A DNA stretch of 64,000 bases from Candidatus Latescibacterota bacterium (GCA_965248265.1 CBDFJF010000001.1:608001-672000), one strand, 5' to 3'. Positions 39,146-62,182 are shown, counted from the stretch's first letter. The notes: generated by a model not told the origin, from the sequence alone. Translations and numbers: made by a program.

Positions 39146-39281
39146 ATAGGCCCCACGGGTGGGGGCGCTTCAATTGATGAAGCACACTCACCGGATAATC
39201 GGTCCTGCGGACGCTTGTACGATGGACCCTGCTGACCAGCCTGACTGCTGACCGGTTGTCGGTGGGAGATGAAACGCCCAT

Positions 39282-41326
39282 GTCGAGTAGCCGAGGCCCT
39301 GTCATGCGGCCCCGGCCCTCACCAGATCCCAGCGAGCAGATTTCCCGCACTGGGCTCCTCCATTGACACGTCTCGCGGTTAGGAAAACCAGATCGATACA
39401 ACGATCCGGGGTCTTGGGAGTGGATACTGCCGGAGCAACCCCCGGTAGTATCGCTCCCACGTCAGGCGCGATCGCTGGCTACGTCGATTCAACCACTTGT
39501 ACCACGCAAACATCGCTGCGGTAGTGAGTTGGGTTACGCTGTTCCCATTCCCGCTGATACCGAAGTAGTTGATGTGGCCTTGGATGCGCCTTACGAGGTC
39601 GGCGTGCTGCTTTGGTATCGGCCAGTTCCGATGGCGACGGCACAGCCGATACAGGGCCTGCACAGACCGCTTGAGCCGATCACGCCGTGTCTTGCTCGTC
39701 AGCACCCATCGACCATTCGGGGCTCTCCGCCAAAACCACGTGAAACCCAGAAGGTCGAAGGTACCTGGCCCTTTACCCTTCGTCTGCTCCTGTGGTGGCC
39801 GCTCGAAAGGGATGAGCCGGGTCTTGTCTGGCTGCAGGGTTAGTCCGTATTTGTCCAGCCGCTTGCTCAGCACTGCCCTCACGCGCTCGGCATCCTCCGG
39901 CAGTTCGAAACCAATGATGAAATCATCGGCGTATCGGACCAACGTTGCTCTACGACGCAACCGTGGTCTGATCTCGACTTCAAACCACTCGTCGAGGACG
40001 TGGTGCAGGTAGAGGTTGCCAAGCAGTGGCGACAAACAGGAGCCCTGTGCGGTGCCTCGGTCCGGCGTAGAAAACTGTTCGCCATCCAGCACCCCAACGT
40101 GCAAGCACTTCCCCACGAGCCGGGTGATCGACCCATCGGGAATCCGCTCCCGGAGAAACTCCATCAGTTTGGATCGATCCAAACTGTCGAAGTAGGATGT
40201 AATATCCGCCTCCAGAATGACCTTCGCTTCCCCGTTCATCACCACCCGATTCAACACCCGCAGAGCGTCGTGGGCACTGCGTCCCGGACGGTAGCCGTAT
40301 GAGCAATCCCGAAAGTCCTGCTCGTAGACCGCCGACAGCACCTCGCGTAACGCCTCCTGGACAATCTTGTCCTCGAAGCACGAGATGCCAATGGGACGAG
40401 TCTTCTTGCCTTTGCCGTCCTTGGGGATGTGGACTCTACGAATGGGCTGGTGGCGCCACCGCTTAGTGCGCAGTCGCCGGTGCAGATCCTGCAGATTCCT
40501 CTCCAGGTCCTGCCCATACTGCTCCTTGGTCACGCCATCTACCCCGACTGCAGCGCTCGGCTTTTGATGGTCGAACGCCCTACGCAGAGCTTCCACGTCG
40601 ATCAGGTGTGCCAGCGAGTGAAACTTGGCCTGCGGCTCTCGCCTCGCTCTCTCCGCTACCTCCAAAAGTCCCGGTGACATGGACCCCGAAGTCAATGCAT
40701 CGGTCATGGTGCCCTCCTGAAGTTCGTGTCAACACGGACCGCCTTGGCTCCGCCGGGTCCAGCTGCCAACCGTTCCCCGACTTCTCAGCTACTACACGGT
40801 CCTCCGACTCCCCATGCTCCATCGGTCGCCGCTCCGGTTCCCCTCGCAAACGACCTACCACGGTGCCCACGCTTGTTCTTAATCGGCCACGCGTGCGTGT
40901 GCTGACGCGTGGCGCGTCGGAGACTTCTTCACCGGCTCTCCGTAGCACCGGAATCAATCCGTGGAGAGGCTGGGGCCTCCCAGGTTCCTGGGTCATCCTC
41001 TGCGAGCGTGCCCTGGTCGTATCACACCCCGCCGGGGTGTCGTCGCCTTGCCCACATAACGCCGACGACACTGCTGCCTTCAGGTAATCCGGCACCCTCA
41101 GCTATCCCGGAACGGTCTCATTTCAGGGCCGCAATCCCACAGCCCGCTCGCTCACTGCCCTACTGCTTCGCCTGCCCCGTTACCGGGAACACACGCAAGG
41201 GCTCGTTTCTGGCCTGCCGGGCTCAGCTTTGGCCAGGCGGGTTTTGCACCCGCGGGACGACTAACCGTATTTCAAGAAAGTATCACCTCCTTCTATTCCT
41301 ACGGACCAGACTTGCCTGGTCGCATC
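39282..41326 (-). mobile_element. Group II intron, copy 1 (2045 nt)
   Basis: Minus strand begins GATGCGACCAGGCAAG and ends with domain V (GAGCCCAGTGCGGGAAATCTGCTCGCTGGGATC) and domain VI ...GGCTACTCGAC. Boundaries come from comparison with copy 2; the 5' end is uncertain by 1 nt. Confidence 0.93.
39379..40707 (-). CDS. ltrA: Group II intron reverse transcriptase/maturase without an endonuclease domain
   Basis: RPIGI, YGYRPGRSAHDA, QGSCLSPLLGNLYL, RYADD, FDLLGF, X domain; RBS AGGAGG. Confidence 0.95.
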   Translation of the reverse strand: MTDALTSGSMSPGLLEVAERARREPQAKFHSLAHLIDVEALRRAFDHQKPSAAVGVDGVTKEQYGQDLERNLQDLHRRLRTKRWRHQPIRRVHIPKDGKGKKTRPIGISCFEDKIVQEALREVLSAVYEQDFRDCSYGYRPGRSAHDALRVLNRVVMNGEAKVILEADITSYFDSLDRSKLMEFLRERIPDGSITRLVGKCLHVGVLDGEQFSTPDRGTAQGSCLSPLLGNLYLHHVLDEWFEVEIRPRLRRRATLVRYADDFIIGFELPEDAERVRAVLSKRLDKYGLTLQPDKTRLIPFERPPQEQTKGKGPGTFDLLGFTWFWRRAPNGRWVLTSKTRRDRLKRSVQALYRLCRRHRNWPIPKQHADLVRRIQGHINYFGISGNGNSVTQLTTAAMFAWYKWLNRRSQRSRLTWERYYRGLLRQYPLPRPRIVVSIWFS

Positions 41327-41474
41327 CGGACCCTGAATCTGATTCCCTAGCTGAGGTCTCGACCTACCCTTGCCACTGTTGTCGGCTGCATCCTACTCTC
41401 TTGACCACTAAGAGCGAAGCCAACAGGGTGCCCCTTCCCACTGCGGTGCAATGGATCTTCCAGAGGGAAACTGA

Positions 41475-42551
41475 GTGAGTGATCGCCCTTCGTTGAACGA
41501 GCTGGATCCAGACCTCGTTCAGGGAGCATTTCGAGAGTCAGTTGGCGATGCCAGGCTACTCGATTGGAGCCAAGCGCCGATCCAGGTAGGATCGGTGGGC
41601 GAGTTGTACCGTGTCAGCGGTAGAGTCCAATTGAATACAGGCACCGCAACGGCTTGCTCCCTCGTGCTCAAGATCCAACGCAGATGGGAACGTCGTGGTG
41701 ATCCCGAATGCTGGAGGCGGGAGGCTCTGGTGTATCGATCGGGAATCTTCGACGAGCTCCCCGAATCGCTCCGAGTCCCTATATGTTACAGCATCCAGGA
41801 GCGTGAAGACGAGACGTGGTACTGGTTCGAAGAGGTCACTGGCACGACAGCAGGCCAGTTTGACCTGGACCACTACTGTCAGGCAGCGCACCATCTTGGC
41901 CAGTTTCAAGGGCCCTACATCGCTGGCCGACCCCTGCCAACCTACCCGTGGCTCAGTTCACGCAGGTGGATTACCCATACGGTGTCCAACTGGGGAACGG
42001 GCGCAATCCCTTGGCTCAATTCTTCTGACAGCTCATCCCTGACCAACTCAGTTCGAGAGCAGGCAATGACGATCTGGGCGGAGCGTGATGGATTCCTTGA
42101 TGTCGTTGATGATTTGCCCAGAACGGTGTGCCATCGTGACTTCAATCCAGAGAATCTCTTCCTCCCCGAGGCACTGTCCGGTGCAAATACCACGGTCATA
42201 GACTGGGATTGTGTCGGAATCGGCGCTCTCGCCGAGGACATAGGTGATCTCGTGGGAGAAGCTCTCGTATTTCAAGAATGGGATATTTCTCGTGCGTTGG
42301 ATCTGAAGGAGCAAGTGCTGGCGGCGTACCACGAAGGGCTTGTCGAATCGGGCTCTAAGGTGAGCCCTGAGACCGTACAACTGGGTTTTGCGACAGTATC
42401 TCCGCTACAGTGGTGCTTTAGGTTGATATGCCGCTATAAGGACGCGGAGGACCCCGCAACCCGAGAGCGTTATGTGGCCATCCTTCAGTTCATGCTGGAA
42501 CTGGGACGCGATGCACGTCGGTTGGCTTCGTCGCGGCCGAACCGCGGATGA
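41475..42551 (+). CDS. Aminoglycoside phosphotransferase-like kinase
   Basis: LVLKI, HRDFNPENL and IDWD motifs. Confidence 0.85.
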   Translation: MSDRPSLNELDPDLVQGAFRESVGDARLLDWSQAPIQVGSVGELYRVSGRVQLNTGTATACSLVLKIQRRWERRGDPECWRREALVYRSGIFDELPESLRVPICYSIQEREDETWYWFEEVTGTTAGQFDLDHYCQAAHHLGQFQGPYIAGRPLPTYPWLSSRRWITHTVSNWGTGAIPWLNSSDSSSLTNSVREQAMTIWAERDGFLDVVDDLPRTVCHRDFNPENLFLPEALSGANTTVIDWDCVGIGALAEDIGDLVGEALVFQEWDISRALDLKEQVLAAYHEGLVESGSKVSPETVQLGFATVSPLQWCFRLICRYKDAEDPATRERYVAILQFMLELGRDARRLASSRPNRG

Positions 42552-42565
42552 CCAATCCGATTTAC
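42539..42565 (+). repeat. Degenerate 27-bp island site (weak), overlapping the stop of the phosphotransferase gene
   Basis: gaaccgcg-gatgaccaatc-cgatttac; inner CGGAT/ATCCG palindrome with the correct spacing. Confidence 0.35.
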
Positions 42566-42694
42566 CTATCCCACCCAGCGGATCCTCCTCGACCGTGGTG
42601 CCAAGATAGCCAACCTGTATCTTCTCTCGTGACAACCAAACCGGATCCTCTGGCCATGTCGATGTTGGTCCTGCTCACGTATGGAGGAGTTCAC

Positions 42695-43948
42695 GTGAAG
42701 ACACCACTGCTCACAGCGTTGGTGCTGGCATCCGCGTTGATCCTGCCTGGCAGCTCGACAGCGGCGAATGCAACGGACTACACGTTCGTACTGCTGGATC
42801 AAGCAATCTACCGCGGCGGAATGGCGCATGTGAATGCCGCCGGACAGGTTGCCCTCTCAACAATTGACCGAGAAAACAATCCCCAGGCGTGTCGGTGGTC
42901 AATCACTGAGAAAGAAGCTCTGTCTCTGGGGACCTTGGCGTCTCACGATCCGCGCTCACTCGCCAAAGCGATCAATGACCGTGGACACATAGTTGGGACT
43001 GTGCATGAGGAGGAAAACAACCTCGTCCATGCATTCTATTGGACTCCCACCAGCGGCATGCGGCGACTCCCTTCGTTTGGTGGATCCCAGACTGTACCAG
43101 TTGATATCAACGACCGGGATCAGGTCGTCGGCCAGTCAATAAATGCAGATGGCCTGGAGCGAGCTTTCCTGTGGACCGCCGATAACGGAATCAGAGACCT
43201 TGGCTCATTGGTGGAAGAAACCGAGAAGACGAGATCACTCACCAAACAGGACTCCGCCAACATCGGCACCGTGGCGACAGAACTGGGAGAGCCCGTTTTG
43301 AGTCCCGGCGGCAAGGTTTTTAAACAAGCGGTGATATCCTCCGTACTGAGAAGGCAGAGCGAGGCTGGGGCTGTGAACGAACAGGGTTGGGTGGTCGGCA
43401 CCTCGAGAGCCATCGATGGCCTTGATCATCCCTTTCTCTGGAAGCCGGAGACCGGGATGATCGATCTGGGAATACTGCCAGGCTATGTCGGAGGGGCGCC
43501 CACCGGTATCAACAACCGGGGACAAGTCCCCGTTGTCCTGTTCAAGCGCCAACCTTTCAAGCGTCGCTCCTGGTTCCTGGGATCCCCGTTCCTGTGGGCG
43601 GACGACGAAGGCCTCGAGCCATTGCCATCGCCGCCTGGTTTCAATGACATCCGGCCAATAGCGATCAACAACAGCGGCGACATTCTGCTCTGGGCACGGA
43701 AGATACCGGAAGGAGAGCCCACGAATAAATCGATCGAATTCACCGGCTTCCTCCTGTCTGGCGACGGATTGTCCGAGTTGCCACAGTTGGAGGGCGCAGA
43801 CCTCACTAAATATTCGGGCATCAACGACAGAGGACACCTTGTCGGGAGTGCTACGAACTGTGAGTTCGACACTGATGGTGAGGTTGTCAGCAGGTCCGCA
43901 AGAGTCTTCGTTGCGGTACCCACCGGCTCGCGTGCAAGCATCGAATGA
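42695..43948 (+). CDS. Secreted HAF-repeat (extracellular repeat) protein
   Basis: GTG start after GGAGG, signal peptide, repeats INDRGHIVG/HAFYW/DLG. Confidence 0.85.
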   Translation: MKTPLLTALVLASALILPGSSTAANATDYTFVLLDQAIYRGGMAHVNAAGQVALSTIDRENNPQACRWSITEKEALSLGTLASHDPRSLAKAINDRGHIVGTVHEEENNLVHAFYWTPTSGMRRLPSFGGSQTVPVDINDRDQVVGQSINADGLERAFLWTADNGIRDLGSLVEETEKTRSLTKQDSANIGTVATELGEPVLSPGGKVFKQAVISSVLRRQSEAGAVNEQGWVVGTSRAIDGLDHPFLWKPETGMIDLGILPGYVGGAPTGINNRGQVPVVLFKRQPFKRRSWFLGSPFLWADDEGLEPLPSPPGFNDIRPIAINNSGDILLWARKIPEGEPTNKSIEFTGFLLSGDGLSELPQLEGADLTKYSGINDRGHLVGSATNCEFDTDGEVVSRSARVFVAVPTGSRASIE

Positions 43949-43961
43949 TTTGGCTGTTCGT

Positions 43962-43988
43962 GCCCATCGTTTGCCCACTCCGATGGGC
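43962..43988 (+). repeat. 27-bp island site (perfect 8-bp arms)
   Basis: gcccatcg-tttgcccactc-cgatgggc, 13 nt after a stop codon. Confidence 0.8.
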
Positions 43989-44063
43989 GGATTTGCTTGC
44001 GATCGTATGAGACTCTCACCGATCTTTCACACATAGATTGTTCATCTAAGCGAAGGAGATGTC

Positions 44064-44318
44064 ATGACTATGTATCGGCTATTTGACGACCTGCTGAGCG
44101 CAAGTGACGCCAAGATTGCAGATCTTTTGCACGAATCCACTGAAGAAGACTGCGTGCTCGCTCTTTCCGGAGCGTCCGCTGTGATGAGAGCCAGATTCCT
44201 TCAGCAGATGGCTCCGCCGCTCCGGACCCACATGGTTGAGCGCATTAACCAGAATATCGTGCCCAGTGACTCGAAGGCCGCTCAATCAAGAATATTGGAT
44301 ATAGCCCGGCAGCCCTGA
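44064..44318 (+). CDS. Stand-alone FliG C-terminal-like domain protein
   Basis: FDDLL...LALSGAS...RFLQQM...AAQSRILDIARQ matches the FliG_C pattern; RBS AAGGAG. Confidence 0.7.
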   Translation: MTMYRLFDDLLSASDAKIADLLHESTEEDCVLALSGASAVMRARFLQQMAPPLRTHMVERINQNIVPSDSKAAQSRILDIARQP

Positions 44319-44334
44319 GTCGACCTGTACGGCC

Positions 44335-44361
44335 TGACCTCGTCCAGACAATCCGATGGTC
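44335..44361 (+). repeat. 27-bp island site
   Basis: tgacctcg-tccagacaatc-cgatggtc (left arm is gaccatcg minus one A). Confidence 0.65.
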
Positions 44362-44446
44362 GGCTGGCCAAGCAACCGAGATGAGACAGCGACGTCAAAT
44401 AAGGTGGATTCCCACCTGACTCTGAATCCCTGGACAGCGCACGTAT

Positions 44447-44884
44447 ATGAAAATTCGCCTGGTCGATTTTCTTAGGGGCTTCTCCCGAACGCCACTGCGT
44501 GGTGGCATTCTGATGCTAGCCGTCACGATATGTCTGATTCTGGCGTTCGGTGGCACATTCGCCATTGCCATTTTCGGGCCCGAAGTCGCTCAGTCCGTAC
44601 TTAAGCCCTGGGTCGTCATTCTCTTGTTTGGCATCCTTGCCCCTGCTGTTTGGGCCAGAATCGCTGCAGCATTGCCGCCACAGTTCTCATTGCCACAGAT
44701 TTTGTTTGTCTTCTGCATCGGCGTCCTGCCGGTGCTGCTTGGAACGCTGTATCAGTACTATTTGCTGGCGACAGTTGGTCCGGAAGGATGTCACGGTGGG
44801 AACATCGCCGGGTTGTTTCTCGGTACTCTGGCTGTGATTGGCGCCGCTGGATCAATGGTGGTGGGATCAATTTTTCGTCGGTAG
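44447..44884 (+). CDS. Hypothetical four-TM membrane protein
   Basis: Four hydrophobic segments; bounded by island sites. Confidence 0.65.
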   Translation: MKIRLVDFLRGFSRTPLRGGILMLAVTICLILAFGGTFAIAIFGPEVAQSVLKPWVVILLFGILAPAVWARIAAALPPQFSLPQILFVFCIGVLPVLLGTLYQYYLLATVGPEGCHGGNIAGLFLGTLAVIGAAGSMVVGSIFRR

Positions 44885-44891
44885 CTCCGCC

Positions 44892-44918
44892 GCCCGTCGT
44901 TCAGGTAATGCGATGGGC
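44892..44918 (+). repeat. 27-bp island site
   Basis: gcccgtcg-ttcaggtaatg-cgatgggc, 7 nt after a stop codon. Confidence 0.8.
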
Positions 44919-45021
44919 GTTAGAGCATCAGAGCCTTCACTTCCTCTTGTGAGTATGTTCTGGCACAGACACGGAGGTGGATGCAAACGACTGCCAAAAC
45001 CGCTCCAAGGAGGACCGATCC

Positions 45022-45303
45022 GTGAATTACATACCTGTTGAACTCTGGCGCATCTTCATAGGTATTGGTGTTGTCGTCATGATTCGCGGATTCCTTTTCT
45101 TGCGAGAACCAACAGTGGGGTCGGCGGAGATCGCAGGCAGTCTCATCTGGGTTTTCATCGCTGCCATCACGTTCATGGTAGCCTACCGCGCGAAGAACGC
45201 TGGGAGTGAAGCGGAGCCTTTACGTTTCATAATCATGGTGTCCGCCGTGGCCGGTCTGAGTACGATAGCCACTGCGTTTTGGCTGTTGATGACGAAAGGG
45301 TGA
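45022..45303 (+). CDS. Hypothetical three-TM membrane protein
   Basis: GTG after AGGAGG; three hydrophobic segments. Confidence 0.6.
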   Translation: MNYIPVELWRIFIGIGVVVMIRGFLFLREPTVGSAEIAGSLIWVFIAAITFMVAYRAKNAGSEAEPLRFIIMVSAVAGLSTIATAFWLLMTKG

Positions 45304-45407
45304 GCGTCCCGCTCCTCCGTTCCTTCCCGTCTCGCATACCATCGCCAGCCTGTCGCCCTTCGTTTCAGCGCCGGTTCAGCCTGGCGAGGTAGCGACCCTG
45401 GTGTACC

Positions 45408-45434
45408 GGGCATCACCTTCACAATCCGCAGGGC
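45408..45434 (+). repeat. Degenerate 27-bp island site
   Basis: gggcatca-ccttcacaatc-cgcagggc. Confidence 0.5.
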
Positions 45435-45683
45435 GCTGGTACTGAGGACGGCGGCGCATGGCATATGCGGACGTCACGGAATACCCCGTATTACCCCGCT
45501 ATCTGGATGCAGGTGAAGATCCCTGGCCTGCTTGAGCGGGCCCATCAAGCAGGCTATCCTTCTCGGCAAGATCGCGATACGAGGAGTGATTCCCATGACG
45601 GCATCTGGCGCCAGCCCGCCTCGCGGGACCCACGGGAAGGATGATGCACACTTCCACATAATCGATATGTTGTGTCAGAAAAC

Positions 45684-46967: not shown

Positions 46968-47013
46968 CACGGCGGCCCATGGAAACGCTGTCTCAAGATG
47001 CACGATTGCCCAT

Positions 47014-49058
47014 GTCGAGTAGCCGAGGCCCTGTCATGCGGCCCCGGCCCTCACCAGATCCCAGCGAGCAGATTTCCCGCACTGGGCTCCTCCATTGACA
47101 CGTCTCGCGGTTAGGAAAACCAGATCGATACAACGATCCGGGGTCTTGGGAGTGGATACTGCCGGAGCAACCCCCGGTAGTATCGCTCCCACGTCAGGCG
47201 CGATCGCTGGCTACGTCGATTCAACCACTTGTACCACGCAAACATCGCTGCGGTAGTGAGTTGGGTTACGCTGTTCCCATTCCCGCTGATACCGAAGTAG
47301 TTGATGTGGCCTTGGATGCGCCTTACGAGGTCGGCGTGCTGCTTTGGTATCGGCCAGTTCCGATGGCGACGGCACAGCCGATACAGGGCCTGCACAGACC
47401 GCTTGAGCCGATCACGCCGTGTCTTGCTCGTCAGCACCCATCGACCATTCGGGGCTCTCCGCCAAAACCACGTGAAACCCAGAAGGTCGAAGGTACCTGG
47501 CCCTTTACCCTTCGTCTGCTCCTGTGGTGGCCGCTCGAAAGGGATGAGCCGGGTCTTGTCTGGCTGCAGGGTTAGTCCGTATTTGTCCAGCCGCTTGCTC
47601 AGCACTGCCCTCACGCGCTCGGCATCCTCCGGCAGTTCGAAACCAATGATGAAATCATCGGCGTATCGGACCAACGTTGCTCTACGACGCAACCGTGGTC
47701 TGATCTCGACTTCAAACCACTCGTCGAGGACGTGGTGCAGGTAGAGGTTGCCAAGCAGTGGCGACAAACAGGAGCCCTGTGCGGTGCCTCGGTCCGGCGT
47801 AGAAAACTGTTCGCCATCCAGCACCCCAACGTGCAAGCACTTCCCCACGAGCCGGGTGATCGACCCATCGGGAATCCGCTCCCGGAGAAACTCCATCAGT
47901 TTGGATCGATCCAAACTGTCGAAGTAGGATGTAATATCCGCCTCCAGAATGACCTTCGCTTCCCCGTTCATCACCACCCGATTCAACACCCGCAGAGCGT
48001 CGTGGGCACTGCGTCCCGGACGGTAGCCGTATGAGCAATCCCGAAAGTCCTGCTCGTAGACCGCCGACAGCACCTCGCGTAACGCCTCCTGGACAATCTT
48101 GTCCTCGAAGCACGAGATGCCAATGGGACGAGTCTTCTTGCCTTTGCCGTCCTTGGGGATGTGGACTCTACGAATGGGCTGGTGGCGCCACCGCTTAGTG
48201 CGCAGTCGCCGGTGCAGATCCTGCAGATTCCTCTCCAGGTCCTGCCCATACTGCTCCTTGGTCACGCCATCTACCCCGACTGCAGCGCTCGGCTTTTGAT
48301 GGTCGAACGCCCTACGCAGAGCTTCCACGTCGATCAGGTGTGCCAGCGAGTGAAACTTGGCCTGCGGCTCTCGCCTCGCTCTCTCCGCTACCTCCAAAAG
48401 TCCCGGTGACATGGACCCCGAAGTCAATGCATCGGTCATGGTGCCCTCCTGAAGTTCGTGTCAACACGGACCGCCTTGGCTCCGCCGGGTCCAGCTGCCA
48501 ACCGTTCCCCGACTTCTCAGCTACTACACGGTCCTCCGACTCCCCATGCTCCATCGGTCGCCGCTCCGGTTCCCCTCGCAAACGACCTACCACGGTGCCC
48601 ACGCTTGTTCTTAATCGGCCACGCGTGCGTGTGCTGACGCGTGGCGCGTCGGAGACTTCTTCACCGGCTCTCCGTAGCACCGGAATCAATCCGTGGAGAG
48701 GCTGGGGCCTCCCAGGTTCCTGGGTCATCCTCTGCGAGCGTGCCCTGGTCGTATCACACCCCGCCGGGGTGTCGTCGCCTTGCCCACATAACGCCGACGA
48801 CACTGCTGCCTTCAGGTAATCCGGCACCCTCAGCTATCCCGGAACGGTCTCATTTCAGGGCCGCAATCCCACAGCCCGCTCGCTCACTGCCCTACTGCTT
48901 CGCCTGCCCCGTTACCGGGAACACACGCAAGGGCTCGTTTCTGGCCTGCCGGGCTCAGCTTTGGCCAGGCGGGTTTTGCACCCGCGGGACGACTAACCGT
49001 ATTTCAAGAAAGTATCACCTCCTTCTATTCCTACGGACCAGACTTGCCTGGTCGCATC
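47014..49058 (-). mobile_element. Group II intron, copy 2 (apparently identical to copy 1)
   Basis: Same sequence offset by 7732 nt; all internal ORF translations match copy 1. Confidence 0.93.
47111..48439 (-). CDS. ltrA: Group II intron reverse transcriptase/maturase
   Basis: Identical 442-aa translation to 39379-40707. Confidence 0.95.
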   Translation of the reverse strand: MTDALTSGSMSPGLLEVAERARREPQAKFHSLAHLIDVEALRRAFDHQKPSAAVGVDGVTKEQYGQDLERNLQDLHRRLRTKRWRHQPIRRVHIPKDGKGKKTRPIGISCFEDKIVQEALREVLSAVYEQDFRDCSYGYRPGRSAHDALRVLNRVVMNGEAKVILEADITSYFDSLDRSKLMEFLRERIPDGSITRLVGKCLHVGVLDGEQFSTPDRGTAQGSCLSPLLGNLYLHHVLDEWFEVEIRPRLRRRATLVRYADDFIIGFELPEDAERVRAVLSKRLDKYGLTLQPDKTRLIPFERPPQEQTKGKGPGTFDLLGFTWFWRRAPNGRWVLTSKTRRDRLKRSVQALYRLCRRHRNWPIPKQHADLVRRIQGHINYFGISGNGNSVTQLTTAAMFAWYKWLNRRSQRSRLTWERYYRGLLRQYPLPRPRIVVSIWFS

Positions 49059-49149
49059 CGGACACAGAGTCCGATGGTCGGTACCATTCCCTGATGTCCT
49101 CGCGTTCTCGCCGGCGAGCATGTTGGACTGCAATAACCCGGGTTGAGAC

Positions 49150-50355
49150 CTATTTCGTTTCCGCCAGTGCGTCTTCAAGCAACGACACCGGGTAGCACAG
49201 GTAGATCTCCAGATCCTGGCGTCCATCACACGACACTTTCATGACCAGGTGGATTACAGGTGTTCCTCCTGAGTGCGGCTCAATGAAACACGGCTCGGTC
49301 TCAAGCTCAATGTCAACGACGGTCATTTCGCGCACTGGCCGCCATGCTGCTTCCAGTGCCGAGATCATTTCCTTTGCCATGTTGGTGAAAGTCTGCCTCT
49401 CTTCTTGAGTCACCCGGTCCTCTGCAGGACCGAATACGGTCGATTCAATCCAGGACTCACCGAGGGGAGTAGCGAGCCAAGCCTGCGCCAGGGTGTTGAT
49501 GGCTTCGTCGTCAGCGTCTGGCTTCAGGAGTGCGGCACACAGGGGTAGAGAAAGGTCCAGACAGACGCGACCCTCCATCGGCTTCATAGTGAAACAGTAG
49601 TCGCAGCAGAACTTGCCCAGCGACTGAACGTAGTACCCGAACATCCACTCGTGGGCTTCACAGATCTCGACCTCCGCATCCCGTCCCAGCGCCTTGGAAA
49701 ACAGCACCTGCAGCCCTGGCAGTAAACCTTTGTGCAGCTTCTCGGCCGCCTGCAGGTTGCTCTGCACTTGATCGGCAAACTTCTGGTCCTTTGACGGGCG
49801 CTGATCCTGCATGGTCTGACGTGCCATATTGACGAACTCCTTCTTGAGCCGTTTTCTGGCGTTGTGGAGACGGTAGTTGACTGTGGAAACAGGTATTTCC
49901 AGGAAAGCAGCCACTTCCTTCTGTGAAAATTCGCTGATGTAGAAGAGATGAATCACCATGCGCTCCTGCTCTGGCAGCGACTGGAGCACGGCTTGCACAT
50001 GTTCCTTCGTGTCTCTCGATTCCAGAATCTCGCCCGGTCCCCTGTCCTTTGACCGCAGTTGCCCTGCCGCCTCTAGCGACACGAACTCCACGTGTTTCTT
50101 GCGTGTCAGCCGGTCGCAGAACTTGAAGACGATCTTGCGCAACCAGCCTGGAAACGCGTGCGGTCCGTACACACTGGAGAGGTTGAGGAAGGCCTCTGTG
50201 AATGCCTCCTGCGCGATGTCCTCGGCCAAGTGAGGATCCCTCAGGATGGCATTGGCGTAGCCCACGACCATATCCTGAAAGCGTCGGACGATCTCGCCGT
50301 ACGCCTCAACGTCTCCGTTCTGCGCTCTGATCAGGAGCGCCTCTAACTCTTCCAC
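49150..50355 (-). CDS. ECF sigma factor fused to a FliM middle-domain-like C-terminal extension
   Basis: Region 2 (AEDIAQEAF, FPGWLRKI) and region 4 (STVNYRLHNARKRL); C-terminus MKPMEGR...LEAAWRPV...LETEP...YLCYPVSLLE resembles FliM. Confidence 0.8.
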   Translation of the reverse strand: MEELEALLIRAQNGDVEAYGEIVRRFQDMVVGYANAILRDPHLAEDIAQEAFTEAFLNLSSVYGPHAFPGWLRKIVFKFCDRLTRKKHVEFVSLEAAGQLRSKDRGPGEILESRDTKEHVQAVLQSLPEQERMVIHLFYISEFSQKEVAAFLEIPVSTVNYRLHNARKRLKKEFVNMARQTMQDQRPSKDQKFADQVQSNLQAAEKLHKGLLPGLQVLFSKALGRDAEVEICEAHEWMFGYYVQSLGKFCCDYCFTMKPMEGRVCLDLSLPLCAALLKPDADDEAINTLAQAWLATPLGESWIESTVFGPAEDRVTQEERQTFTNMAKEMISALEAAWRPVREMTVVDIELETEPCFIEPHSGGTPVIHLVMKVSCDGRQDLEIYLCYPVSLLEDALAETK

Positions 50356-50570: not shown

Positions 50571-50597
50571 AGCCGTCGTTGACAGAGTCCGATTACC
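50571..50597 (+). repeat. 27-bp island site
   Basis: agccgtcg-ttgacagagtc-cgattacc; shares ACAGAGTCCGAT with the intron-2 target. Confidence 0.65.
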
Positions 50598-51642: not shown

Positions 51643-51669
51643 GTCCGTCACCGACAGCATCCGACGGGC
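51643..51669 (+). repeat. 27-bp island site
   Basis: gtccgtca-ccgacagcatc-cgacgggc. Confidence 0.75.
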
Positions 51670-52576: not shown

Positions 52577-52603
52577 AGGCGTCACGCCATACGTCCGTCG
52601 CTC
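52577..52603 (+). repeat. Degenerate 27-bp island site
   Basis: aggcgtca-cgccatacgtc-cgtcgctc, 4 nt after a stop codon. Confidence 0.45.
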
Positions 52604-52661: not shown

Positions 52662-52662
52662 A

Positions 52663-53701: not shown

Positions 53702-53728
53702 GACCATCTCCTCTACAGGACGATGCTC
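53702..53728 (+). repeat. 27-bp island site
   Basis: gaccatct-cctctacagga-cgatgctc. Confidence 0.65.
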
Positions 53729-55958: not shown

Positions 55959-55998
55959 ACGCCAGCGGGAGCCAGTGAGCATTGCGGCCGACGGCTAC

Positions 55999-56088
55999 AC
56001 ATAACAGGTCCACTGGCGGCTGCGGGCCTTCGGCTCTCTGCGAATACCCGCCTTACTGCGGGCGTCGCCAGTGGCCAAGACGTTACCT
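55999..56088 (+). mobile_element. Integron attC site 3 (90 bp)
   Basis: R'' ACATAAC (complement of the previous R'), inner IR CACTGGCG/CGCCAGTG, R' GTTACCT. Confidence 0.85.
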
Positions 56089-56134
56089 GAAATTGAAGAG
56101 AAGGTAGCTGGGGGATGGCACACGTTCGGAGATA

Positions 56135-56677
56135 GTGAGAATTCAGGTGGACGAGACGATTGTACGGAAGCTATCAGAATTCGAGGCACAATGGCGTGAA
56201 AAATATGAGGCTGAAAGGAAACAGCTTCTCACAGTTTTCGGGGATGCCGCGCTTGAAATTGAGCATATCGGCGGGACCGCCGTCGATGGTCTGACGTCTA
56301 AGCCAGTCATTGACATTGCCGTGATGATCGAGCGTCGAGAAGACGCCGACAGTTTCAGTGAAGCTCTGGCTAGTCTGGACTACACCTTCAGGTCACTCAG
56401 TACCGAGCGGCATTTCTATGTAAAGGGGAGGCCGCGCGAGTTTCACCTGTCTGTTGCCTACGCCGACGAGGGTGGTTTTTGGCCGAGGCAGATCCTGTTC
56501 CGCGACTATCTACGCACTCACCCCGAAGCTCGCAGAGAATACGCACAGCTAAAGACCGAGCTGTTGAGTGGAGATCCATCTGGTGAGACGTATTCGGAAG
56601 GTAAAACAGATTTTGTATACCGCATCCTAAATTTGGCGGGTTGGAAGACCGGCGAGAAATACAGTCCACGCAGTTGA
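56135..56677 (+). CDS. GrpB (UPF0157) family nucleotidyltransferase-like protein
   Basis: IEHIGGTAV, KPVIDI, FRDYLR, YAQLK, YSEGK. Confidence 0.88.
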   Translation: MRIQVDETIVRKLSEFEAQWREKYEAERKQLLTVFGDAALEIEHIGGTAVDGLTSKPVIDIAVMIERREDADSFSEALASLDYTFRSLSTERHFYVKGRPREFHLSVAYADEGGFWPRQILFRDYLRTHPEARREYAQLKTELLSGDPSGETYSEGKTDFVYRILNLAGWKTGEKYSPRS

Positions 56678-56724
56678 TGATGAGGCGATCCCATCCTGAA
56701 TGTGCGAACTGTTGCCTCGCCGCC

Positions 56725-56751
56725 GCCCGTCAGATCCTATATCTGATGCCC
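56725..56751 (+). repeat. 27-bp island site
   Basis: gcccgtca-gatcctatatc-tgatgccc; inner TCAGAT/ATCTGA palindrome. Confidence 0.75.
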
Positions 56752-56799
56752 GGCCCCCTACATGCAATTCGTTGTTGATATTCCTCGCGGAGGGCGATA

Positions 56800-57399
56800 A
56801 TGCAAACAAGATGGCATGATCTCGTTTTGACGTTGGCACTGTCCGCAAACGCATCGCTGGTAGGCTGTGCGACTCCTGCGCGCCAACTGGTCCCGGACGA
56901 CACCGAAATCCTTTCCCTTACCGCTCGGCACGATGCCTCGATCCTGGCCGTCGATCGCACCGACCACGCCAAAGATTGGATCGGCGAGTATAAGGGCCGT
57001 GGCGATTTTTTCAACGGGCAATTTTGGGAGCGCCAGAGGGCCACTCGGGTGTTTTTTAATTATGGCCGAAGAACAGCCGATGGCCGCCGAACTATTTCAA
57101 TGGGTGGATTCACTAATAGAATCGATGCTCATGAGGGGCATTTTGCCATTCACGACATAGAACTGGGCGAGTCAAGTGAGGTGAAGGGAGTTTTCGGAGG
57201 ATTCCCTGCCGATAAAGGGCTGCGTCGAAATCGCGAAAGATTGGAGTATACCTTCTCGTTGAATGACGATGGAATTGAGGGGCATGTAAAGCAATACTGG
57301 GCGGAAGGCGAGGACGGGCCGTTTGTCCCCAGGAAACAATGGGTTTTTGAATTGAAGAAGAACCGCGTAGACCGGGGCTTAGTTGGTTTTCCTCAATGA
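56800..57399 (+). CDS. Hypothetical lipoprotein
   Basis: RBS GGAGG, lipobox-like LVGC; more AT-rich than its neighbours. Confidence 0.55.
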   Translation: MQTRWHDLVLTLALSANASLVGCATPARQLVPDDTEILSLTARHDASILAVDRTDHAKDWIGEYKGRGDFFNGQFWERQRATRVFFNYGRRTADGRRTISMGGFTNRIDAHEGHFAIHDIELGESSEVKGVFGGFPADKGLRRNRERLEYTFSLNDDGIEGHVKQYWAEGEDGPFVPRKQWVFELKKNRVDRGLVGFPQ

Positions 57400-57592
57400 T
57401 GAAAGGCCCGAAAGCAGTCGTGTCATGGATGGCTACTGTTTCGAGGCGTGCGACCCGATCCGGGTCGACAGCGTTCGTCATCGGGTGACGTGGAACGGCA
57501 GCCCCGACGTGAGCAAGCTGGCCGGCCAGCCGATTCGGCTGCGCTTTCACATGGCGTTCGCCAGCTTGTACGCTTTTGGGTTCAAGGAGTGA
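57383..57592 (+). pseudogene. Orphan C-terminal fragment of a beta-propeller/glycosidase-like protein
   Basis: GYCFEACDPIRVDSVRHRVTW...LAGQPIRLRFHM...LYAFGF is a recognisable C-terminal module; its N-terminus is absent. Confidence 0.55.
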
Positions 57593-57595
57593 CGG

Positions 57596-59239
57596 GTGAC
57601 TCTTCTTCGGCTCGTTGCGGCGGCGGCCGTCGCTCTCGTGATCCTCACCAACCTGACGCTGGCGCAACCGATCGTGCTGCCTGACGAGCTGCTTGAGCCG
57701 GACTTGGCGCAGCCCCTGCGGACCCTCGATTCCGATGGCGTTGCGATCTCGATCTACGCGGCAAAGAAATCCGGACAACCCGAGGCGCTGGACAAGCGTG
57801 ATCCGACGGTGTTTACGGCCGGCTCCGGCAACGCGCCCTATTTCTACCCGCAGAACCCGACGCCGGCGACCATCGAGCTGCGGGCCGAAACCAACTATTA
57901 CGACCTCACGCAGAGCAAGACACTCACCGTCCAGATCCATGAATTGCAGCCCGAAACCGTGTACTTCTACCGCGTTGCGGATTCCGTCGAGATCAACCGC
58001 TTCAAGACCCCGCCCCCGGCCGGCCAGTTCAAGCCGTTCCGCTTCGTCGTGATCGGCGACACGCAGGGGCCCTATGACCATGCCGGCGACCAGCAATTGA
58101 ACAAGGACCGCCTGGTCATGGCGCCGTTCGCCCAGGCCAATCTCCCGGCCAATGCGCAGTTCAACCGGATCACCCAATCCATCCGCCGCAGCAACGTGAA
58201 GCCGGACTTCGTCGCCCACGTCGGGGATATCGTGGAGGACGCGCGCTACTGGGTGCAATGGACACGGGAACAGTTCAGCGATCTCAAATACCTGCTGACC
58301 CTAGCGCCGGTGTATCCGATCATGGGCAATCACGAATACCACGATCCCCGCTTTCACCGTTACTTCGGCCTGCCGATCACCGCCGAAGAACACGAAGCGG
58401 ACCCGGAGCGGCCGTTCTTTTCGTTCGACTGGGGCGACGCTCACTTCATCTTTCTCGACATGAACGGCGGCTGGTACACGATCTACGATATTGACGCCGT
58501 GCCGGAAGAATCCGGGACCTCCTACGACATTGACGGCATACCGCACCATTACGATATCAAGCACGTACGCGGCGGCCGCAGCTATGCGATCAGCGACGAG
58601 ACCCTGACCAGGCTGAAAGGACATCTCGCCGACGATCGTATCGCAAAGCTCCAAGCGTTGAAGGGCAAGGAAATGGATCGCGCGGCGTTGCAGAAACAGT
58701 TGAGCGACCTCGGCTTCAGCAAAGAAGAGAACCGGAAAACCCGCACGGCAGCAATCAAGTGTTACCGCAGCAACGTCGCCAATTGCCGGGTCGCGCTCTA
58801 TATCCTCGGCAGCCCGGTTCAGGAAGCGCAGATCAAGTGGGTGAAGAAGGACCTCGAAGCGAACAAGGACCGCAAGTACATCTTCGTCTTCACCCACCAC
58901 CCGCAGCTCTACGGGACATCGGAAAACAAACAATTCATCGAGCTGTACGAGAAATACCGGGTCTGTGCCACCTTCTCGGGGCACCTGCACCTCTATTCCC
59001 ACCATCTTCGCAACGGCGTGCACTACTTTCAGTCGGGCGGCGGCAGTGACGAGACCTACACGGCCCTGATCGACGAGCAGCCCGACAGTTTCGTCATGCA
59101 CCGCTACGGCCCGCAGTACATGATTCTCGATGTGCACGCGGACCGCGCCCTCGCCCTCGGTGTCGGTCCGGACAATCAGGTGTTCGAGCGGACCGTGATC
59201 CGCCCGCGGGATTCGGGAGCACGGTCAGCTTCGGATTGA
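57596..59239 (+). CDS. Secreted purple-acid-phosphatase-like metallophosphoesterase
   Basis: Signal peptide, FN3-like LQPETVYFYRV, GDTQ, GDIV, GNHE, THHP, GHLH. Confidence 0.88.
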   Translation: MTLLRLVAAAAVALVILTNLTLAQPIVLPDELLEPDLAQPLRTLDSDGVAISIYAAKKSGQPEALDKRDPTVFTAGSGNAPYFYPQNPTPATIELRAETNYYDLTQSKTLTVQIHELQPETVYFYRVADSVEINRFKTPPPAGQFKPFRFVVIGDTQGPYDHAGDQQLNKDRLVMAPFAQANLPANAQFNRITQSIRRSNVKPDFVAHVGDIVEDARYWVQWTREQFSDLKYLLTLAPVYPIMGNHEYHDPRFHRYFGLPITAEEHEADPERPFFSFDWGDAHFIFLDMNGGWYTIYDIDAVPEESGTSYDIDGIPHHYDIKHVRGGRSYAISDETLTRLKGHLADDRIAKLQALKGKEMDRAALQKQLSDLGFSKEENRKTRTAAIKCYRSNVANCRVALYILGSPVQEAQIKWVKKDLEANKDRKYIFVFTHHPQLYGTSENKQFIELYEKYRVCATFSGHLHLYSHHLRNGVHYFQSGGGSDETYTALIDEQPDSFVMHRYGPQYMILDVHADRALALGVGPDNQVFERTVIRPRDSGARSASD

Positions 59240-59551
59240 GCAGGACCGACACATATTTGGTTTGTTTCCTTTGCAGACCTGGCTCACTTTGTTGGCAGAG
59301 GCAGGGTTTGAGGCGAGTACCCTTCCCTATGATGTGCAGTTCTTAGTGGCTATAAAATAGGTTATCGGTAATCGGTCAGGTGCTATTTTTTGTTTTTGAC
59401 GGTGTTGATGGCGGTTTTCGGGGGTTGACGGTCGATGGATGAACCTTGAGGCTGGGAATGGTGCCGTGCGGTGAACAGCTGTGAGCGAGGAGGGCGTTGC
59501 CAGTGACGTATCAGGGCACAGCGGTGCCTTGGCTGTGGCCGTGAATCGATG

Positions 59552-60199
59552 TCAGGCGGCGAAATCCAGCTCAGGTTGGGGATGGGGGCGTGCCGGGGCG
59601 ATCGGCGGTGCCCGTGGTGGCAGGCCGACGCCTTCCAGGTAGCGGGCAATGGAGCGGGGCTGGGTGAGTGCCGCGACGATTTTCATATGGCCGCCACAGC
59701 CGGGGCACACGGTGACGTCGACGCGGAACACTCTGCGCAAGAGGGCGGCCCAGGCCAGGCGGTGTCGGCGTTGGGCGGGTGTCGGCTCACCAGTTCGACC
59801 GGGGACCGGCTCTGGGTCCTGCACCTGTTCTTGTGGGCCGGGTACGATCTGTGCCCGAGCGGCGGCGTTGGGCGCCAAGACGCCATGGTAGCGCACCAGA
59901 TTGAGGCGTCGTGGGGGCACCAGGGCGGCCAGTTTCTCGATCAATTCTTGTGGCGAGAGCTCAATTCGATAGGTGCCGTCTGACCAGGGCGTTTTCAGGT
60001 CGAAGGCCACCTGCTCGGCATCGAGGATCTGCAGGCGTCCCGCCGCCAGCGGCGGTCGATTGACGTAGCGGCACAGTCTTTCCAGGCGAGTGCGGTCGGC
60101 GGCTGGCACACGGGTGGCCGCATGCAGGGAGAAGCCGCGGCAGAGCGGACGCCAGGGCTCGCGACCAGTGCCCGGACACTCGCTGGTTTCCGCTTGCAT
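59552..60199 (-). pseudogene. 5'-truncated IS91/ISCR-like (Y2 HUH) transposase
   Basis: GFSLHA, RLERLCRYVNRPPLA, LKTPWSDGT, RYHGVLAPN, CPGCGG; the N-terminal half including the HUH motif is missing. Confidence 0.85.
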
Positions 60200-60315
60200 T
60201 GAATGCGCCGCTGCACGGGGAGAACGAGTTGAGCGTTACACTGGTTGTCGGCGACACCGAGGCCTCCGGCGATCTCGTCATCGACGAGGTCGAAGTCTTC
60301 GTACAACCGAACTAG
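60198..60315 (+). pseudogene. Orphan C-terminal gene fragment abutting the transposase truncation
   Basis: Manual translation LNAPLHGENELSVTLVVGDTEASGDLVIDEVEVFVQPN* looks like a beta-sandwich C-terminus; no start. Confidence 0.4.
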
Positions 60316-60448
60316 CTCAGACAGTTCGGTCCGGCATCTGCTGTGATCTGGATTTGAGCGGATTGCGCCCGGTGGGCGGTCATTAGTACGCTTCGAAAGG
60401 TGCGCGCGCGACGTGGACGAGTTAATGTTACCTCAATAGGAGGGCAAT

Positions 60449-61687
60449 ATGTGGCAGCCCGGCACACCCATCACCGGCTACTACCACGGACCAGGGGGTG
60501 GATCAGACCGGTGGGGTCCGCTGACACCCGGGATGGCCCGGAAGCTGGTAGATGGCGGTTTCAACCTGGCCTGGGGATGCACCGTGGAGGACCTCGACGT
60601 CGCCCACGAGCACGGGTTGCGCGTTGACCTGATCGGCTTGTACACGGAGGACCCCACCGTCTTCGACGACCCGGCGGGCAGAGCCAGGATCGATGCGGTC
60701 ATCGATAGCGTCAAAGACCATCCCGCTTTGTACTCCTACAACGTCAGCGACGAGCCGAGCGCTGTCAGGTTCTCGGAGTTTGCCAGGATGTTGGACTACT
60801 TCCGCGAGCGTGACCCCGACCACCTGGCCTACATCAATCTGTTTCCTACCTACGCCAGCAACGAGCAGCTGGGCACCGAGGGCGATACTACCCAGGCGTA
60901 CAGGGAACACCTGCGTCAGTACATCGAGATCATCCGCCCCGAACTGATCAGCTACGACCACTACAACCTCTACACGGACGGAGACACGGACGAGTACTTC
61001 CTCAATCTCGCGCTCGTGCGCGAGGCGACCCTGGGCGCCGGAATTCCCTTCCTCAACGTCGTCCAGGCGTGCTCACTGGATTTCCCGGACAGCCGTGTGC
61101 CCAACGGCGATGAGGGCAGGTACCTGGCCTACACGACACTGGCCTACGGAGGCCACGGGCTCTCGCAGTTCGTCTACTGGACTCGTGTCGACGACTTTGT
61201 CGGGGGCGGTGTTTCCGAGTACGCAGAGGGGCCATTCAACACTGAACGCGCCGCGGCCGACGCCGCTGCGCCACTGACTCCACTGGGTGAGGCCCTGCGT
61301 CAGATCAATCCCGAGTTCGTCGCCATCGCCGAGCAGCTGCAGCCGCTGACTTCCCTGGGTGTGTATCATTCCGGCCAACCGCCCGCGGGAGGTGCCGTAG
61401 AGGAGCTGGCGGGCGACGCTGCGTTTGCGGTGGATCCCCCGTTTGATCCGCAGCGGGACAAGGGGATTCTCTGGGGATTCTTTGGTTCATCAGTCGATCC
61501 GACACACGTGTTGGTCGTGAATCTGAACTACGGGCAGCGGATCACGACAACCGCAGTCGGCCCGGGACCCATGGAGGAATTCGACGTCCATGAGCGGCAG
61601 TGGCGTCCGGTTTCAGATGGAGTGCGCGCGAAACTGAACCTGGTGGCCGGTGGCGGCAGGCTTCTGCGCCTGCGACAGGGATCCTAG
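60449..61687 (+). CDS. Hypothetical glycoside hydrolase-like (TIM-barrel) protein
   Basis: RBS AGGAGG; GFNL, HPALYSYNVSDEP, YINLFP, SYDHY. Confidence 0.65.
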   Translation: MWQPGTPITGYYHGPGGGSDRWGPLTPGMARKLVDGGFNLAWGCTVEDLDVAHEHGLRVDLIGLYTEDPTVFDDPAGRARIDAVIDSVKDHPALYSYNVSDEPSAVRFSEFARMLDYFRERDPDHLAYINLFPTYASNEQLGTEGDTTQAYREHLRQYIEIIRPELISYDHYNLYTDGDTDEYFLNLALVREATLGAGIPFLNVVQACSLDFPDSRVPNGDEGRYLAYTTLAYGGHGLSQFVYWTRVDDFVGGGVSEYAEGPFNTERAAADAAAPLTPLGEALRQINPEFVAIAEQLQPLTSLGVYHSGQPPAGGAVEELAGDAAFAVDPPFDPQRDKGILWGFFGSSVDPTHVLVVNLNYGQRITTTAVGPGPMEEFDVHERQWRPVSDGVRAKLNLVAGGGRLLRLRQGS

Positions 61688-61690
61688 ACC

Positions 61691-62062
61691 ATGCGCTTCG
61701 GCATTATCGGCTGCGGCGACATCGCCGAGCAATCGTTCGCTCCGAGTCTCGTTGACTCCGATGAGGTCGAACTCGCCGCCGTGTGCCGCCGCGACGGCGA
61801 CAAGGCGAGAGCGTTCGCACAACGCTTCGGCGGTTGTGCGGCCATCTATCGGCAAGTGGGCCTGCTCGGCGTCTGGTCCTTCCGACTCGAGCAGATAGCA
61901 GTCTGGTCCGCATTCGTGGCAGGCCGGCTGACCACGGGGGACATGGGAGAGCAGGCCTGGTTTTGGTGGGCCTTGACACTCTTCCTGTCAACGTTCGTTA
62001 CGTTGGGAGGCTTGTTTGTGCTCCGCTACGGGGTCACTGCGAAGGTCGGCGTCCAACTTTGA
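61691..62062 (+). pseudogene. Chimeric remnant: Gfo/Idh/MocA N-terminus fused to a membrane-protein C-terminus
   Basis: MRFGIIGCGDIA...AFAQRFG (about 50 aa), then an abrupt switch to hydrophobic TM sequence. Confidence 0.65.
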
Positions 62063-62155
62063 CAAAACAGACGACGGGGAAGCATCCCGAGGATGAGACA
62101 CCAGCCTGACCAATGGCCCCAGGGGCGCTCAACCGACTCTTGATAGCACCAAGCC

Positions 62156-62182
62156 GAGCATCGGATCCATACTGCGATGGTC
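62156..62182 (-). repeat. 27-bp island site, reverse orientation
   Basis: Minus strand gaccatcg-cagtatggatc-cgatgctc, overlapping the stop of a minus-strand gene. Confidence 0.75.

Follow-up and report, generated by a model that had tools for sequence, protein, structure and literature searches.

To our knowledge, only integrons and the dif modules of Acinetobacter are well known for trading small gene modules through short sites. Here, a 64,000-nucleotide (nt) stretch of the genome of a Candidatus Latescibacterota bacterium (GCA_965248265.1, CBDFJF010000001.1:608001-672000), referred to as the window, was subjected to computational analysis to characterise a 27-bp motif that recurs between the genes of an island. 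The motif is most likely the swap point of a gene-module exchange system not described in this form, and literature searches, with supplementary files outside their scope, retrieved no description of the site or of its architecture. The genome (G000) comprises 7.32 Mb on two contigs, C1 and C2, and is 92% complete; the window corresponds to C1:608001-672000. Coordinates without a contig prefix are window positions, and those preceded by C1: or C2: are whole-genome positions.

The nearest known system is that of the Acinetobacter dif modules. According to the available part of PMC13141974, their sites are 28 bp long and consist of a XerC arm, a 6-bp spacer and a XerD arm (11-6-11). Such plasmid dif (pdif) sites resemble chromosomal dif, use the host XerC and XerD, alternate in orientation (C and D modules) and are located on small Rep_3 plasmids; exchange takes place between sites with identical spacers, and single modules are replaced via two matching pairs (PMC13141974, same part). 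The present array is similar in its two-arm sites of about 27-28 bp, which have an asymmetric spacer and bound accessory modules, and single-module replacement is also the behaviour that we infer here from class order and homology breaks. It differs from dif modules in its geometry (8-11-8 instead of 11-6-11), in its uniform instead of alternating orientation, in its location on about 365 kb of chromosome instead of plasmids, in having a candidate element-encoded Xer-like family in place of the host XerC/XerD, and in the fixed order of its site classes. The 27-bp site itself is presumably unlike dif. Integrons, including clusters of attC sites lacking integron-integrases (CALINs), likewise have co-oriented sites between small accessory genes, and in integrons, too, a group II intron is inserted in the site and runs opposite to the strand of the local genes (available part of PMC7923331). 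Unlike integrons, the array has no IntI, no R and L boxes and no folded-strand complementarity in the genome as assembled, and its gene orientation is mixed; integrons have one interchangeable kind of site, whereas many mutually distinct classes are found here. The array is a member of neither system.

The degenerate pattern GNCCRTCR-N11-YGAYGGNC had three exact matches in the window (43962, 44892 and 51643), where 0.00 were expected from 100 dinucleotide shuffles, and 17 of the 18 exact matches in the whole genome fell within C1:651962-1014348. With up to three mismatches the pattern was not enriched in the window (47 matches against 55.9 +/- 7.5 expected from shuffles), and a weight matrix was therefore needed to judge degenerate copies. 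The matrix was trained on near-exact copies and was also used in an arms-only version, which at a score of at least 16 placed 49 of its 59 C1 matches in C1:640-1030 kb (reversed-sequence control, 11); on C2 it gave 25 matches against 21 in the control, which is the background level. The two 8-mers at a spacer of 11 nt were found 24 times in C1:640-1030 kb and three times in the remaining 6.93 Mb, and in the same C1 interval each other spacer from 5 to 17 nt gave 0-2 matches. The sites are restricted to 5% of the genome. Conservation was restricted to positions -1 to +28 (about 29 nt, that is, the 27-mer plus one base per side), and the flanks, taken as +/-90 nt around the sites, had zero information content. 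According to our own gene calls for the region, which are crude, 57 of 64 strong sites are intergenic. The median distance between sites is 2.8 kb, and the cargo around them includes small accessory genes, e.g. GNAT, NUDIX and GrpB.

These counts bear out an earlier, sequence-only reading of the window, which had proposed a 27-bp motif recurring between island genes, not seen in the core intergenic regions that it inspected and with a spacer of constant length (11 nt). Of the ten instances that it listed, the matrix found nine (43962, 44335, 44892, 45408, 50571, 51643, 53702, 56725 and 62156), and the tenth, at 52577, was not found at a score of at least 10; three weaker copies that it placed at 42539, 44410 and 51721 were not recovered either. 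Two copies described as split by introns are real (39276-39281 with 41327-41347, and 47008-47013 with 49059-49079). Upstream, window positions 1-43961 gave no matrix match at a score of at least 13. Downstream, the island had been taken to end at 62182, but the array continues well past the window to about C1:1,015,000.

The central 7 nt of the 11-nt spacer fall into at least 17 classes, e.g. GACAGAA, TCCTATA, CAGGTAA, TCCATAC and GTAGCAG, which were assigned with both orientations tried. All typed sites point in the plus direction in the C1 cluster (78/78) and in C2:3.88-3.935 Mb (10/10), and a third group, in C2:3.03-3.065 Mb, is mixed, with two plus and four minus. In an orientation-blind test of 64 sites, 116 pairs with at least 8 of 11 identical loop positions had the same orientation and five had the reverse. 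Since the sites are co-oriented despite mixed gene directions in the region (left neighbour gene on the plus strand at 32 sites and on the minus strand at 22, counted by hand), their orientation follows the chromosome and not the genes. This also applies to the site at 62156, which had been thought to flip with its minus-strand gene: its CCATAC-class centre gives the same chromosomal orientation as that of all typed sites.

The classes, denoted by letters, follow each other in C1:651962-682221 in the order D, F, C, A, A, A, G, B, c, e, H, d, K, I, E, J. The stretch that starts at C1:705181 runs D, F, C, A, A, A, B, c, d, (I, E), the one that starts at C1:858382 runs F, B, B, d, H, d, I, E, M, J, and the classes on C2 run N, A, (A), G, e, I, H, K, I, I, (E), M. 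When the order was learned from C1:651962-682221 only and tested on all the sites that follow, a share of 0.589 of the transitions went forward by 0-2 steps, compared with 0.268 +/- 0.055 after shuffling, and none of 20,000 shuffles reached as high a value; with runs collapsed, the corresponding values were 0.489 and 0.153. The DNA between equivalent sites was mostly unrelated by tblastx when the first and third stretches were compared, the exceptions being introns, a gene fragment before class D and a 360-nt I-to-E segment. Arm variability within a class equals that between classes. The array is best read as a shared scaffold of related integrative elements in which the site classes keep a conserved order. 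The sites of the window are as follows:

39276-39281 (left 6 nt) and 41327-41347 (right 21 nt), plus strand: intron-split site of the CCCTGAA class, read from the intron flanks.
43962-43988, plus strand: class D site, centre TGCCCAC, exact match, matrix score 31.6, 13 nt past the stop of the open reading frame (ORF) 42548-43948; its upstream homology with C1:704824-705208 stops inside the right arm.
44335-44361, plus strand: site with a degenerate left arm, outside the classes, matrix score 22.2.
44892-44918, plus strand: class F site, centre CAGGTAA, exact match.
45408-45434, plus strand: class C site, centre TTCACAA, matrix score 14.4, typed.
47008-47013 (left 6 nt) and 49059-49079 (right 21 nt), plus strand: intron-split site of class A, read from the intron flanks, typed.
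50571-50597, plus strand: class A site, centre GACAGAG, with a hybrid-looking right arm CGATTACC, matrix score 19.8.
51643-51669, plus strand: class A variant, centre GACAGCA, exact match, typed.
53702-53728, plus strand: class G site, centre TCTACAG, matrix score 12.4; the class is also present at C1:741032, 759676 and 1009461.
56725-56751, plus strand: class B site, centre TCCTATA, matrix score 22.5, typed.
62156-62182, plus strand: class c site, centre TCCATAC, matrix score 32.0, abutting the stop of a minus-strand gene with extracytoplasmic function (ECF) sigma and tetratricopeptide repeat (TPR) regions (ORF 62181-63995, Pfam).

Two inverted arms and an asymmetric centre of 6-8 bp, as found here, are the features of a simple tyrosine-recombinase core site of the lox, FRT or dif type. 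Cre/loxP recombination depends on the spacer, and engineered heterospecific lox/FRT exchange is alike in that two inverted arms enclose an asymmetric spacer which decides which sites pair. It differs in that it was designed in the laboratory and uses two or three variants of the spacer, as against at least 17 natural classes in conserved order, known here from sequence alone.

The two arms differ in composition. The left arm is degenerate (GNCCRTCR plus 2 variable nt) and looser at positions 5 and 6, and GACCCACG was found in left arms only. The right arm is better conserved (TC-YGATGNNC, including the inner bases T18 and C19). A folded site should have arms that match within the site better than across sites, and this is not so: arm-to-arm identity was 5.22 of 8 against 5.20 +/- 0.10 in shuffled pairings, and arms were perfectly complementary in 3 of 77 sites against 2.2 expected, so the site is not a hairpin element. 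A search for the Y1 transposase of the REP-associated tyrosine transposase (RAYT) type, where REP stands for repetitive extragenic palindrome, gave no PF01797 match in G000, and the control search was positive in 6 of 14 known genomes. The arm data and the missing transposase argue against a REP element, a terminator or an attC-like folded site. For IntI, the best match to TIGR02249 (G000:C1:1754240-1755055) reached 138.4 + 101.5 bits in one frame of 324 amino acids (aa), where the cut-off is 265, and it was without model positions 178-232, the IntI-specific segment, in this 92% complete genome. The R''-L''...L'-R' boxes of attC, with the consensus as given in the available part of PMC7923331, were not found in the sites, where information is present only in the roughly 29 nt described above.

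To assess the sites as junctions, both 700-nt flanks of 87 typed sites were compared with the whole genome, and intron-to-intron matches were excluded. None of the 21 paralogous alignments reaching a typed site crosses it: 12 end there, 8 start there and one ends at +37. When control positions +/-150 or +/-300 nt away are taken instead, the alignments that cross number 25-64 and those that end or start number 5-8. Hybrid sites are also present. The site at C1:700337 (GGTAATCG...CGACGGTC) and that at C2:3044283 (GGTAATCG...CGATTACC) have the left arm in common, and the right arm is of another type. C1:763892 and C2:3909142 are alike as far as the CG of the right arm (after nt 21-22), C1:651962 and C1:705181 also break after nt 21-22 in the right arm, and C1:767389 and C2:3913198, which part left of the centre, match from the inner left arm on. 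At C1:700337, and at C1:711716 in comparison with a related genome (G031), the break lies at the right edge of the centre. Separately, a segment of 627 nt is 99.7% identical between C1:781325-781951 and C1:1755494-1756120, the latter beside the best XerC/D-like gene of the chromosome; the island copy ends 2 nt before a class B site, and the other copy is without a site.

The island begins directly after a tRNA-Glu gene, and its left end contains the following features:

38463-38538, plus strand: tRNA-Glu(CTC), detected with ARAGORN (Rfam tRNA, 60.8 bits), the left island boundary and putative integration target of the stacked elements.
38498-39145, minus strand: remnant ORF of 215 aa with a recombinase zinc-ribbon (Pfam PF13408, 25.6 bits), the left-end gene of the first element.

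The region of this remnant ORF is homologous to C1:688581-688847 and C1:704577-704804, which lie beside pseudo-tRNA ends. Degenerate tRNA-Glu 3' ends, each followed by the same approximately 245 nt, are found at C1:688581, 704508 and 731750, with no tRNA-end repeat past C1:731772. These repeats indicate related integrative elements that inserted successively at tRNA-Glu, and the part beyond 732 kb, without recognisable tRNA ends, is read as an older, decayed accretion. Tycheposons are reportedly similar, with related elements stacked at one tRNA gene and partial tRNA 3' ends between them (tandem accretion). The present locus shares the stacking of related elements with partial tRNA 3' copies and differs in having only three pseudo-tRNA ends, all in the first 85 kb. 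For the internal array of 27-bp sites we know of no counterpart in tycheposon-like elements.

The end of a unit consists, in order, of a class J site, a double site made up of two back-to-back sites (arm-3 nt-arm), a minus-strand gene for a Xer-like tyrosine recombinase, a small ParB-HTH gene and the pseudo-tRNA end; ParB-HTH genes are present in three of the units. The recombinase has four intact paralogues of 280-312 aa with about 80% identity, and one fragment:

C1:685700-686638: intact Xer-like paralogue.
C1:703263-704105: intact Xer-like paralogue.
C2:3930247-3931098: intact Xer-like paralogue.
C2:3033502-3034371: intact Xer-like paralogue.
C1:731073-731336: Xer-like gene fragment.

The catalytic R, HxxR, H and Y of the four paralogues lie in invariant columns. 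The best family models were XerA/XerC/XerD, all below the cut-off, the top score against solved structures was that of a Xer-like recombinase, and the protein is without an extra arm-binding domain. A double site lies 52-470 nt downstream of all four intact genes, and a genome-wide scan for arm-3 nt-arm gave 53 matches, of which five had the full two-site structure and four of these five were linked to the recombinase. In two of the four units, small ORFs with no family match (C1:685310-685672, 120 aa; C1:702844-703191, 115 aa) lie between the recombinase gene and the double site, and they may be accessory or directionality factors.

We assign a probability of roughly 0.55 to the reading that integrative elements, stacked in tandem at tRNA-Glu, carry a system of module exchange whose core recombination site is the 27-bp motif. 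Read as approximately 10-7-10, the site would be a core of the lox/FRT/dif kind. The likely enzyme is the element-encoded Xer-like recombinase, which would bind both arms and exchange strands at the edges of the centre. As strand exchange would need matching centres, only sites of the same class would recombine. Integration and excision or deletion could then result where two stacked units have a site class in common or where a circle has one in common with a resident unit, and two classes used in turn could replace the module between them, such that class order and orientation would be kept while the cargo changes. Five features would be explained jointly by the proposed mechanism: order and direction are kept, runs of the same class occur (AAA, BB, JJ), cargo is unrelated, homology breaks off at the sites, and some arms are hybrid. 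Recombination itself is suggested by these sequence comparisons, and it may continue in the present day.

The interpretation offered in the sequence-only reading was accordingly partly supported. A class-defining centre between two inverted arms fits the tyrosine-recombinase geometry with a centre of about 7 nt that it put forward. Its expectation of breakpoints at the site was supported by the homology between dispersed copies, which in all 21 alignments comes to an end at the site, and by the hybrid sites. Its statement that the site is not attC holds, with no IntI above the cut-off, conservation over about 29 nt and no arm complementarity beyond the shared consensus. The co-occurring recombinase for which it proposed a search has candidate cognates just outside the window, in the four intact Xer-like paralogues with a double site after each. 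The picture of an integron-like one-way array of 1-2-gene cassettes without promoters had to be given up, given the mixed gene orientation, the spacing and the sites that do not flip with genes.

If true, the reading would add a third system to integrons and dif modules, in a distant, poorly studied lineage and with a recombinase family of its own. Many site classes in a fixed order would then represent an addressing scheme for modules, and the naturally occurring spacer variants, about 17 in number, orthogonal to each other and served by one recombinase, would be of practical interest for genome engineering. A more far-reaching version, to which we give somewhat less than even odds, is that of a natural cassette-exchange scaffold and third site-specific gene-module system beside integrons and dif modules, in which about 15-17 mutually incompatible sites of fixed order and orientation, served by their own Xer-like recombinase, would allow any module to be swapped between elements or genomes without disturbing the rest.

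Several observations weigh against the module-exchange interpretation. The outer 8 nt are the best conserved arm positions, not those beside the centre, and conservation at outer arm positions instead of next to the centre is unusual for Xer-type sites. The high identity within classes (0.80-0.98 over positions 11-16, falling to 0.66 for position 17; between classes, 0.19-0.53) is partly circular, as the classes were defined on positions 11-17. The break points range over site positions 5 to 23, and this scatter fits exchange at either edge of the centre and also fits microhomology recombination. A repeated 27-mer of any kind could give a similar junction signal if recombination at it were driven by microhomology, and for this reason the probability is held at the value given above. 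The Xer-like protein is a candidate tied to the site by co-location only, and as no intact large serine recombinase was found in the cluster, it could instead be the integrase of an attachment (att) site at tRNA-Glu. Contigs from four runs of one sample and study, the sole public runs, gave five joints (54501>55329, 54502>55345, 55374>56058, 59601>59765 and 60195>60271), all short-sided and none at a site, and neither a recombination product nor a circle nor a strain difference was seen at a site; contigs drop rare variants, so that missing joints at sites inform neither way.

Comparative support is thin as well. The array was found in one genome only, with 30 relatives at background level (0-7 motifs per genome against 43 in G000), no close homologue of the recombinase was found in 75 genomes of the order, and a recombinase-alignment scan of metagenome contigs gave no close homologue and one distant locus at 25% identity. 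The homologues in relatives have 34-60% identity, and no site of the G000 type was found in their short loci. A scan of genome contigs with the class A pattern gave four single matches, three of them chance-like and one leading to the relative G031. This genome shares with G000 a syntenic core of about 67-76% nucleotide identity and the same tRNA at the same place; it has only three pattern matches and no Xer-like homologue at E <= 1e-20. A 1.6-kb segment (C1:711743-713486) is 98% identical in G031 and starts at a class A site in both genomes, with unrelated DNA beyond that site in both, and its far end is not at a site, so that it is site-bounded on one side only. In addition, 13.3 kb are 99.1% identical between G031:C10:1901358-1914639 and G000:C2:1878445-1891725, with many segments of 84-99% identity around them. 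The high identity suggests that a large mobile region moved between genera recently, and this region contains almost no 27-bp sites.

Two of the window sites are interrupted by copies of a group II intron:

39282-41326, minus strand: group II intron copy 1, with a reverse transcriptase (RT)/maturase ORF at 39379-40707, in the CCCTGAA-class site; the identical 2056-nt repeat spans 39276-41331, and the intron boundaries were deduced from the restored site.
47014-49058, minus strand: group II intron copy 2, with the same sequence as copy 1, in the class A site.

The repeat of 2056 nt (intron of about 2045 nt) with its RT/maturase ORF has six copies in the genome, four of them in the C1 cluster. 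Both the ribozyme domains and the RT/maturase ORF of a group II intron are present: the RNA matched RF02005 with 100.7 bits (gathering threshold 49) and RF00029 with 39.8, just below its gathering threshold of 40, and the ORF matched Pfam RVT_1 and TIGR04416 (309.7 bits, cut-off 300). Five of the six introns are inserted in a site. All five have entered the left arm at the same point, between nt 6 and nt 7, and in each of them the intron sense strand is the bottom strand of the site. The sixth copy (C2:783712-785767) is 99.95% identical, is the sole plus-strand copy and lies outside a full site, in a partial look-alike which has only the ...ATCCG/AT... core in common with the sites. For comparison, group IIC-attC introns insert in the attC bottom strand, opposite to the cassettes (available part of PMC7923331). 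Intron homing shows that the site is a stable, recognisable target and does not explain the site; if the reading as a recombination site is true, a group II intron is able to specialise on a recombination site other than attC.

Apart from recombination, the sites could be operators or centromere-like sites of a dimeric DNA-binding protein, e.g. the ParB-HTH protein encoded in three of the units, in the manner of the KorB operators spread over IncP plasmids, and the homology breaks would then be a by-product of bound protein or of short shared sequence. Two inverted half-sites at a fixed distance, arms without complementarity beyond the consensus and a mostly intergenic position speak for this explanation, which we nevertheless consider unlikely: binding alone would not constrain the 11-nt spacer, yet discrete centre classes are kept in order while the flanks differ, a palindromic operator needs no strict co-orientation of the kind seen in 78 of 78 sites, and homology never crosses a site. 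It is quite improbable that the sites are palindromes resembling REPs or miniature inverted-repeat transposable elements (MITEs), i.e. terminator or mRNA-stabiliser hairpins spread by some transposase, at which rearrangements end via microhomology. The absence of a Y1 (RAYT) transposase from the 92%-complete genome, the restriction to 5% of the genome (49 of 59 C1 matches in 390 kb, with no genome-wide spread), arm complementarity at the level of random pairing, an orientation that follows the chromosome and not the neighbour gene (32 plus, 22 minus) and the fixed class order all argue against such palindromes, even though the sites are short, imperfectly palindromic and mostly intergenic, 7 of 10 window sites follow a plus-strand ORF, 7-104 nt past its stop, the sites are the target of a group II intron of the hairpin-seeking kind, and 26 nt are identical between C1:652890, at the site at 44892, and C1:705995-706020 with flanks without homology.

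The group II intron could itself have produced most of the pattern, through homing, recombination between copies and intron loss, by which flanks would be shuffled and hybrid sites broken at the insertion point. A model of this type has been proposed for the genesis of integron cassettes (available part of PMC7923331), and five of six copies do sit at the same position in a site. This origin is very improbable, because the two cleanest breaks lie after nt 21-22 in the right arm and others left of the centre or at its right edge, because 78 typed sites in the C1 cluster face only four introns, and because the conserved site, its classes and their order would be left unexplained. Scarcely credible is an unusual integron or CALIN with very short attC sites: it would agree with co-oriented sites that separate small accessory genes (GNAT, NUDIX and GrpB, for instance) and with introns opposite to the local genes, as in group IIC-attC introns (available part of PMC7923331), and it is contradicted by the lack of an IntI above the cut-off, of a second box pair in the roughly 29 nt and of arm complementarity, and by the mixed gene orientation. 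Module exchange at a core recombination site is retained as the preferred reading.

A matS- or parS-like chromosomal role was dropped, since by GC skew the motif-rich region is not at the origin or terminus. The skew is near zero or positive at C1:0.3-1.1 Mb, compared with the negative surrounding replichore, and this anomaly extends further than the site array, which suggests that a large region has been acquired or rearranged. At window positions 59552-60199 (minus strand) lies a fragment of an IS91-family Y2 transposase (PF04986, 71.6 bits) that contains stops on read-through. The summed contig depth there is about 240 against about 11 nearby, a pile-up which means that the sequence is multi-copy in the sample. 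The IS91-type Y2 transposase was rejected as the cognate enzyme, as C2, away from the array, contains 13 of its 16 genomic matches. Large proteins in which ECF-sigma is fused to TPR (604 and 639 aa) recur within the island, at window positions 62181-63995 and at C1:683306-685225, one of them just before a recombinase double site. A 401-aa ORF at window positions 49150-50355 (minus strand) combines ECF-sigma regions 2 and 4 with a C-terminal FliM match (34 bits), and an 84-aa ORF at 44064-44318 matches the FliG C-terminal domain; these FliM- and FliG-like pieces are odd, isolated flagellar-motor fragments among the cargo.

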